Part shown: positions 524-1,100 of the stretch, in pieces
Layout: each line of letters begins with the position of its first letter
Numbering within the stretch: position 1 is the first letter of the stretch
The notes under the pieces: generated by a model
Told to the model about the DNA's origin: nothing
The model's database searches: none
Seen by the model: only the letters and a program-made list of their open reading frames with translations
Position numbers and translations under genes: made by a program
Sequence record: OR845352.1
Length of the DNA stretch: 3,161 nucleotides
Source of the DNA: Escherichia phage ECO95 1-6-1
Strand: one strand, 5' to 3'

Positions 524-1038
524 GTATACGAGAATTGAACCTCACTAAAGAGCAGCATGACTGGCTTAATGGGTGGCTTGAGCTATGGGGGGCATGGGTT
601 TATTCAGGAAGACTCGAAAAACGCATGAGCAGCGTTATAGCGCAGTTTATGGAGAGGGTAGAACCATCAAGAGTGATGACAAGGCCAATGTGCAATGATG
701 ATGACGGAATGTTGATTTCTCAGGTCGTAGATTCCGTTATGCGCATCGACACAAAGGCCTTTGGCATTCTGCTTAGCTATTACGCACATGGTTCCTCTAA
801 GCGAGCAATTGCATCCTACTATCACGCGACTGCAAAGCCACGCAAGATGTGTGGACGTGGTGGCGAGGGATGGAGAAAACCTTCACTGGCAACCTGTAGA
901 AATGAAATTGACGACATCCTGAAAGCGTCATTATTTTTTTTATACCAGCCAATGCAAAATGCTTTCAAAATGCGTAAACGTGTTGAGAAAGTTAAGCATG
1001 TTGTTGTTAAAAGTCTTGACATGCAATTATCCATTTAG
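520..1038 (+). CDS. Q: Late-gene antiterminator Q (Q82/QuuD-type, Phage_antitermQ family), 172 aa
   Basis: N-terminal region carries the LELWGAWV motif, followed by RPMCNDDDGML and LLSYYAHG, a pattern I recognise from QuuD/Q82-type antiterminators (LERWGAW...RPQCCDDD...LL.YY.G). GGGAGG at 505-510 lies 9 nt upstream of the ATG. It sits directly upstream of the tRNAs and lysis genes as in lambdoid late regions. The C-terminal 40 or so residues are AT-rich and basic. Confidence 0.85.
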   Translation: MSIRELNLTKEQHDWLNGWLELWGAWVYSGRLEKRMSSVIAQFMERVEPSRVMTRPMCNDDDGMLISQVVDSVMRIDTKAFGILLSYYAHGSSKRAIASYYHATAKPRKMCGRGGEGWRKPSLATCRNEIDDILKASLFFLYQPMQNAFKMRKRVEKVKHVVVKSLDMQLSI

Positions 1039-1045
1039 CCATAAT
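1016..1045 (+). promoter_or_regulatory. Candidate sigma70 late promoter (pR'-like): TTGACA, 18-nt spacer, CATAAT
   Basis: Perfect -35 hexamer TTGACA at 1016-1021, an 18-nt spacer, and a 5/6 -10 match CATAAT at 1040-1045. It lies at the Q stop codon, where lambdoid phages place pR'. Predicted start near 1052. Confidence 0.4.
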
Positions 1046-1057
1046 TAGAGGGTAAGC

Positions 1058-1100
1058 TGCCGTTAGTGACTCTTAAGTTGCAATGGTGGCTTTTTTTATT
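1058..1100 (+). terminator. Candidate intrinsic terminator (tR'-like): imperfect hairpin followed by a T7 run
   Basis: T run TTTTTTTATT at 1091-1100 is preceded by a weak stem (GCCGUUA at 1058-1064 pairing with UGGUGGC at 1084-1090, three of the seven pairs G-U). It lies about 40-50 nt downstream of the candidate promoter. The hairpin is weak, so the call is tentative. Confidence 0.25.

Follow-up and report, generated by a model that had tools for sequence, protein, structure and literature searches.

A predicted Q21-type late-gene control cassette at the 3′ end of Q in Escherichia phage ECO95 1-6-1

Organization of the Locus

The window (the whole 3161-bp stretch of Escherichia phage ECO95 1-6-1 DNA that was analyzed; sequence record OR845352.1) is the junction between the early-right region and the late operon of a lambdoid or P22-like phage. 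It contains the following features, of which the control elements at the 3′ end of Q are predictions:

160–363: ninH
344–523: small nin open reading frame
520–1038, + strand: Q antiterminator gene, 172 amino acids, Q21 family (PF06530; match to the Q21 structures; 81% identity to Q21)
1016–1021, + strand: predicted −35 of pR′, TTGACA, aligned with the annotated −35 of phage 21 pR′ and invariant in all loci of the L/Sf6 type
1025–1032, + strand: predicted QBEu, AATTATCC, in the register of phage 21 QBEu (ATTGAGCA) and covarying with the contact residues of Q
1033–1040, + strand: predicted QBEd, ATTTAGCC, which includes the Q stop codon TAG and shares one base with the −10
1040–1045, + strand: predicted −10 of pR′, CATAAT, separated from the −35 by an 18-nt spacer
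1052 (about ±3 nt), + strand: putative transcription start G1052, corresponding by homology to the start annotated in phage 21 and lying 7 nt past the −10, just before TAAGCT
1053–1058, + strand: predicted pause element (SDPE), −10-like TAAGCT at +2 to +7, identical to the annotated phage 21 SDPE
1054–1097, + strand: predicted intrinsic terminator tR′, an interrupted 17-bp stem (1054–1092) followed by seven T residues (1091–1097)
1101–1175, + strand: tRNA-Asn(GTT), which begins 3 nt past the T run
1182–1257, + strand: tRNA-Thr(TGT)
1255–1484, + strand: lambda-like untranslated leader of the lysis genes, 94% identical to lambda 44942–45170
1503–2645, + strand: late lysis genes that the module would serve
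1503–1706, + strand: class II holin
1678–2181, + strand: SAR-type lysozyme
2178–2645, + strand: Rz, with embedded Rz1 (2398–2583)

The annotation of the lysis genes agrees in phage 21 and BTP1, and the spacer from tRNA-Thr to the holin gene is 245 nt long. An Rfam scan of the window at E values up to 1 returns nothing beyond the two tRNAs. Positions 900–1300 are 100% identical to Salmonella phage S.Kent 1-2-1 and 96–99.5% identical to many P22-like phages of Salmonella, Shigella, and E. coli, including BTP1, SPN9CC, and Sf6.

At the holin start (1478–1515), an inverted repeat, CCCCTCAATAAAGGGGG, lies directly upstream of the gene, and the holin N-terminus, MYRMDK, includes two Met codons in the same frame, much like the dual-start holin/antiholin genes annotated as S in phage 21 and in lambda. 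The region 3′ of Rz (2650–3161) contains a small open reading frame (2728–2868), a terminator-like hairpin on the minus strand (2876–2860), a very AT-rich segment (about 2940–3060), and an open reading frame that starts at 3109 and runs past the end of the window; it differs in S107, the closest annotated relative checked.

The Q Protein

The Q gene directly upstream of the cassette encodes a protein that matches PF06530 (E = 5.5e-26), which Yin and co-workers define as the Q21 family. Residues 1–161 match crystallized Q21 (PDB 6jnx/6p18; E about 1e-86), and the two proteins are about 81% identical in alignment. The C-terminus is 10 amino acids longer than that of Q21 (1006–1038 being the last codons), and as a result of this extension the Q coding sequence overlaps the −35 and the QBE: the last codons run through the −35 and QBEu, and the stop codon TAG (1036–1038) belongs to QBEd. 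The Q21 gene of phage 21 ends 7 nt before its −35.

Within Q, the minus strand carries a CII-type site, TTGCGTGGCTTTGC (TTGYN6TTGY; 832–845), and a −10-like TAGGAT (813–818). These positions are those of the antisense promoter paQ and the CII site annotated in phage 21, and the sequence suggests that the anti-Q promoter is probably conserved in the window.

Predicted Late Promoter pR′

In the phage 21 genome (OL657228), a −35, QBEu and QBEd, a −10, a start, an SDPE, a terminator, tRNA-Asn, and tRNA-Thr are annotated after Q, with citation of experimental papers. The experimental status of the phage 21 elements is given here according to this annotation, Shi et al., and the Yin et al. preprint.

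A first-pass annotation of the window had noticed a TTGACA within the last codons of Q and a CATAAT 18 nt further on, by the Q stop; both are located, at 1016–1021 and 1040–1045. The TTGACA lies inside codons 166–168 (CTT GAC ATG) of the Q 3′ end (…AAA AGT CTT GAC ATG CAA TTA TCC ATT TAG). The pair matches the consensus at 11 of 12 positions, with a spacer that exceeds the optimum by one, and is the sole such site that the promoter scan finds in the window. A match of at least 11/12 on either strand arises in 156 of 2000 dinucleotide shuffles of the window (7.8%), so that the promoter match alone is only mildly unusual and its weight comes from its placement. By proportion, we estimate that such a match on the correct strand and within the ~100 nt between Q and the next gene would arise about once in 1000 cases.

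CATAAT occupies the same position relative to QBEd and the SDPE as the phage 21 −10, AACACT. From −35 to +1, the window has diverged from phage 21 in sequence and kept the layout, with a spacer of 18 nt as against 17 nt; the assignment of this segment therefore rests on position and on the covariation described below. As far as sequence can tell, a σ70 promoter lies at the 3′ end of Q.

Predicted Q-Binding Element

The predicted QBE, placed between the −35 and the −10, consists of two tandem, direct 8-bp repeats, AATTATCC/ATTTAGCC (1025–1040). A start at 1052 puts C1031 at −21 and C1039 at −13, and in phage 21 mutation of the C at −21 or −13 impairs Q21-dependent antitermination. The phage 21 QBE is ATTGAGCA + AATGAGCA (OL657228), and its half-sites, A(T/A)TGAGCA, differ from those of the window, A(A/T)TTA(T/G)CC. 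The base-reading residues of the two Q proteins differ as well, being H95 and R128 in phage 21 and R95 and N128 in the window.

According to the phage L paper, tandem AATTATCC/AtTTAgCC repeats are predicted to replace the phage 21 QBE, and three of six DNA-contact residues differ from those of phage 21 Q. The QBE of the window is identical to this predicted phage L QBE. At position 6 of QBEu, which is the weak subsite in phage 21, the window has T and Sf6 has G (AATTATCC vs. AATTAGCC), and both forms are common among the loci surveyed below.

Putative Start Site and Pause Element

The start at about G1052 is placed by homology, and the phage L paper puts the putative late start of that phage about 46 bp ahead of the first tRNA. 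The first-pass annotation had proposed a search of the early transcribed region for a −10-like pause element; TAAGCT is found there, at +2 to +7, and a TAnGnT hexamer occupies this register in every related class. This element and the QBE had both been missed in that first reading.

Predicted Terminator tR′

The T7 run that had been reported just before tRNA-Asn is present (1091–1097). The hairpin in front of it had been described as weak, and this description does not hold: the RNA from 1052 to 1100 folds into 11 + 6 bp (stems 1054–1064/1082–1092 and 1066–1071/1076–1081) with a ΔG of −18.4 kcal/mol and a z score of −4.9, and 0 of 200 shuffles are equally stable. A generic terminator scan misses this hairpin because it permits only a simple stem with a loop of 3–8 nt. 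The window tR′ differs from the phage 21 tR′ by a single C-to-T change in the 3′ arm, which converts a G–C pair to G–U at a cost of 1.8 kcal/mol.

Among 18 distinct variants of the phage 21-type leader, 95% of cells are paired, and six pairs are changed on both sides, a number that 0 of 500 shuffles reach. When the registers of the leader alignment are slid, pairing drops to 31–67%.

The hairpin and T7 lie shortly past the pause site and ahead of the late genes, and the phage 21 counterpart, 21tR′, serves as a terminator in in vitro antitermination assays. The hairpin also directly abuts the 5′ end of a tRNA, as would be expected if it and the T run were no terminator but served tRNA processing as a structured 5′ leader, or made the polymerase pause independently of Q. 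Such a role is extremely improbable, because the same hairpin and T run occur in many tRNA-less loci with lambda-like sequence directly after them, because the hairpin is one base away from the 21tR′ used in vitro, and because unrelated terminators take its place in other family members. Intrinsic termination at tR′ is thus the preferred reading.

Relation to Known Late Control Regions

Phage 21 shares with the window the Q family and the order and spacing of the elements. In alignment, the window, Sf6, and phage 21 are almost identical over the whole stretch that begins at TAAGCT and takes in the hairpin, the T run, and the two tRNAs. The Sf6 GenBank record lists a promoter (“nearly identical to phage 21 late promoter”), a qut site, tR′, and two tRNAs. 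The compact pR′/qut/tR′ module suggested in the first-pass annotation is borne out: it matches the annotated phage 21 cassette position for position and agrees with the homology-based annotation of Sf6. A real regulatory cassette was thus located by a reader working without tools.

The elements, their register, their homology to phage 21, their conservation, and the covariation with Q are read directly from the aligned sequences. On these grounds, positions 1016–1097 very probably control the late genes of a lambdoid or P22-like phage whose Q belongs to the Q21 family.

The same variant is found in the P22-like phages L, ST64T, Sf6, and BTP1, in which the gene is a Q21-type gene 23 or Q; identity to the window over 900–1300 is 96–98%, with point differences only, one of which is the C-to-T change of the window in the 3′ arm of the hairpin. 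Phage L has tRNA-Leu where the window has tRNA-Thr. Descriptions of this variant exist in the Sf6 record and in the phage L paper; the element in the window is therefore a known member of a textbook system, and its detection here is a rediscovery. The cassette adds no new switch biology, and the covariation table is the one modestly new product. Exact coordinates for all parts can serve annotation as well as the design of reporter or induction constructs in P22-like Salmonella prophages, BTP1 among them.

With the lambda pR′/qut/6S/tR′ region, the window shares a logic in which a constitutive promoter carries a QBE in its spacer, a sigma-dependent pause follows, and a short leader is terminated unless Q brings about readthrough. 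Lambda Q belongs to a structurally unrelated family (PF03589), acts as a monomer on a non-repeat site, and needs NusA. The lambda-type cassette can be rejected for the window, where Q belongs to PF06530, the predicted Q-binding site is made of direct repeats, and the leader would measure about 46 nt. In lambda, the T run of the terminator lies >200 nt past the promoter motif, and there are no tRNAs.

In Stx phages such as 933W, the late operon opens with tRNA genes that lie just past the terminator under Q control and precede stx. The 933W-type Q matches only the N-terminal part of the window Q, with ~34% identity; regions of this type carry other tRNAs, and the window is without stx genes.

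Comparative Survey of Q21-Family Loci

From viral contigs and phage genomes, 324 loci that encode Q21-family proteins were collected, representing 160 distinct combinations of Q and promoter; the loci returned by separate queries overlap in part through shared contigs, and counts are for this reason also given as distinct sequences. Each locus was anchored on the −10-like hexamer downstream of the promoter. The geometry is fixed in every class: a −35 (TTGACA, TTGACT, TTGCAT, or TTGCTT), two tandem 8-bp repeats, a −10 that overlaps the last repeat base, and the TAnGnT hexamer 13 nt past QBEd.

Both promoter types are joined to either of two unrelated leaders. In the first, the phage 21-type leader, TAAGCT precedes the long hairpin; in the second, TATGCT precedes …AAGCCCACCTCCTGTGGGC-T6. 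The −10-like hexamer is retained at +2 to +7 in either case. Almost every locus has a hairpin and five or more consecutive T residues that end at +44 to +74; the exceptions are eight loci in which only a four-T tract, or none, was found. Other hairpins occur in more distant relatives, such as Edwardsiella phage GF-2, whose Q shares 64% identity with Q21, and Klebsiella phage ST15-VIM1phi2.1, whose Q shares 46%. Past the T run come either the tRNAs or, with nothing in between, GCACAACAGGTAAGAGC, which in lambda follows tR′, so that the tRNA pair acts as an optional insert located exactly behind the terminator.

GF-2 (L164, 1720–1965) has the same layout, including tRNA-Asn(GTT) and tRNA-Thr(TGT), with a different hairpin sequence, from which it follows that the placement of the pair behind tR′ predates the E. 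coli/Salmonella group. The alternative leader, TATGCT…GCCCACCTCCTGTGGGC-T6, lies behind the same promoter in L033, L036, L015, L010, and others (~1740–2480), and in L016 and L051. In several of these relatives, it is followed by an insert of ~650 nt and then by a second, promoterless hairpin and T run of the phage 21 type. The mosaic junctions fall at the T run and in the interval that separates the −10 from the pause element.

Covariation of Q and the QBE

Shi et al. describe H95, A124, R127, and R128 of Q21 as reading bases, and R113 as contacting the minor groove. Loci with a window-type Q have TTA(G/T)CC/TTAGCC repeats in 79 of 80 cases, the remaining locus being incomplete, and loci with Q21 have TGAGCA repeats in 78 of 80. 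Across the 160 combinations, three residues track three half-site positions with no exception. Position 8 is A where residue 95 is H or I, and C where it is R; position 4 is G where residue 128 is R, and T where it is N or K; and position 6 is C where residue 124 is E, and G in QBEd with any other residue. Neither R127 nor R113 varies, and the C at position 7, which is mutationally essential in phage 21, is likewise invariant. The combination of R95 and N128, found in the window, is always paired with TTAGCC half-sites.

This covariation, which represents roughly six clades and not 160 independent events, is the pattern that the sequence of a true binding site would be expected to give. We lean slightly toward regarding the Q and QBE of the window as one allele of a recognition code of the Q21 family, in which residue 95 would specify position 8, residue 128 position 4, and residue 124 position 6, with R127 and the position-7 C fixed. 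In the searchable literature, a family-wide Q/QBE code is not found, and the phage L paper only remarks that the contact residues and the QBE differ.

If the code is true, L/Sf6-type and 21-type Q proteins would be mutually orthogonal, and specificity could be switched by two or three substitutions. Its confirmation would explain the lack of cross-activation between co-resident lambdoid prophages with related Q genes, and would provide orthogonal antiterminator/promoter pairs for synthetic circuits.

Proposed Mechanism

The Q21 mechanism is known from the Q21 structures (Shi et al.; Yin et al. preprint), and we infer each step below by carrying it over from phage 21 by homology. For the L/Sf6-type variant, this applies to the start site, the pause, the efficiency of termination, and the dependence on Q.

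RNA polymerase with σ70 would start at about G1052 from TTGACA/18 nt/CATAAT. Region 2 of sigma would then re-bind TAAGCT (+2 to +7), and the polymerase would pause a few nucleotides downstream. Without Q, it would stop at the hairpin and U7, and a leader of about 46 nt would be released. Once Q accumulates, two protomers would occupy the tandem repeats AATTATCC/ATTTAGCC in the promoter spacer and load onto the paused complex. Within the RNA exit channel, the upstream protomer would form a ring that lets through single-stranded RNA only, which would prevent the tR′ hairpin from forming. Transcription would continue past tR′ to cover both tRNA genes, the lysis genes, and the remainder of the late operon.

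Lysis-Gene Leader and the Position of the Late Promoter

The lambda segment to which the leader is homologous (44942–45170) lies downstream of lambda tR′ and upstream of S, and is thus the lambda S leader. On the + strand, the promoter scan finds no other promoter-like site from 1046 to 2877. A late promoter in the spacer at 1258–1500 was considered and rejected, being unlikely in lambda S-leader DNA that has no promoter-like site on the + strand.

The broader proposal that TTGACA/CATAAT is a chance match, the real late promoter lying elsewhere, for example in this spacer, draws on the frequency of equally good matches in shuffled windows and on a paper that places the beginning of the BTP1 lytic operon behind the tRNAs. 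It is very improbable when set against the positional homology of the site to the annotated phage 21 pR′, its conservation in all loci of this Q type, its tie to the covariation of Q residues, and the origin of the spacer in lambda DNA from downstream of lambda tR′. The BTP1 description could reflect a further start site, or simply tRNA processing. We retain pR′ at 1016–1045.

Within the lysis leader, a hairpin at 1339–1385 followed by GUUUUG (ΔG −25.6; z −5.4) is conserved with lambda. It has the look of an additional, weaker terminator within the late transcript.

Expression of the tRNAs and Dependence on Q

Since tRNA-Asn begins 3 nt past the T run and no other promoter-like site lies on the + strand before 2878, the tRNAs would be expressed from pR′ readthrough or from upstream early transcription. 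The BTP1 prophage is 98% identical to the window in this region, and a list of its highly expressed genes, those that exceed a TPM of 100 in uninduced cultures, explicitly singles out the two tRNA genes.

This signal raises the question of whether the cassette is also active without Q, as a constitutive, attenuated tRNA promoter. In that case, pR′ would fire in lysogens, a fraction of transcription would leak through tR′, and stable tRNAs would accumulate, with only the long late mRNA strictly dependent on Q. The listing of the BTP1 tRNA genes for uninduced cultures, the lack of room for a tRNA promoter of their own, and the G–U pair that replaces G–C in the window terminator are consistent with this proposal. 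The high rate of spontaneous induction of BTP1, however, would by itself give Q-dependent expression in a subpopulation, and tRNA read counts in RNA-seq are unreliable, with cross-mapping of host tRNAs possible. On balance, we consider Q-independent expression of the tRNAs rather unlikely; leaky termination with stable tRNAs, tRNA processing, and high spontaneous induction are all possible sources of the BTP1 signal.

Also annotated in BTP1 is an antisense RNA, STnc6010 (320 nt; D23580 386640–386959), which by offset corresponds to about 1139–1458 of the window on the minus strand, and which is antisense to the S leader, tRNA-Thr, and part of tRNA-Asn.
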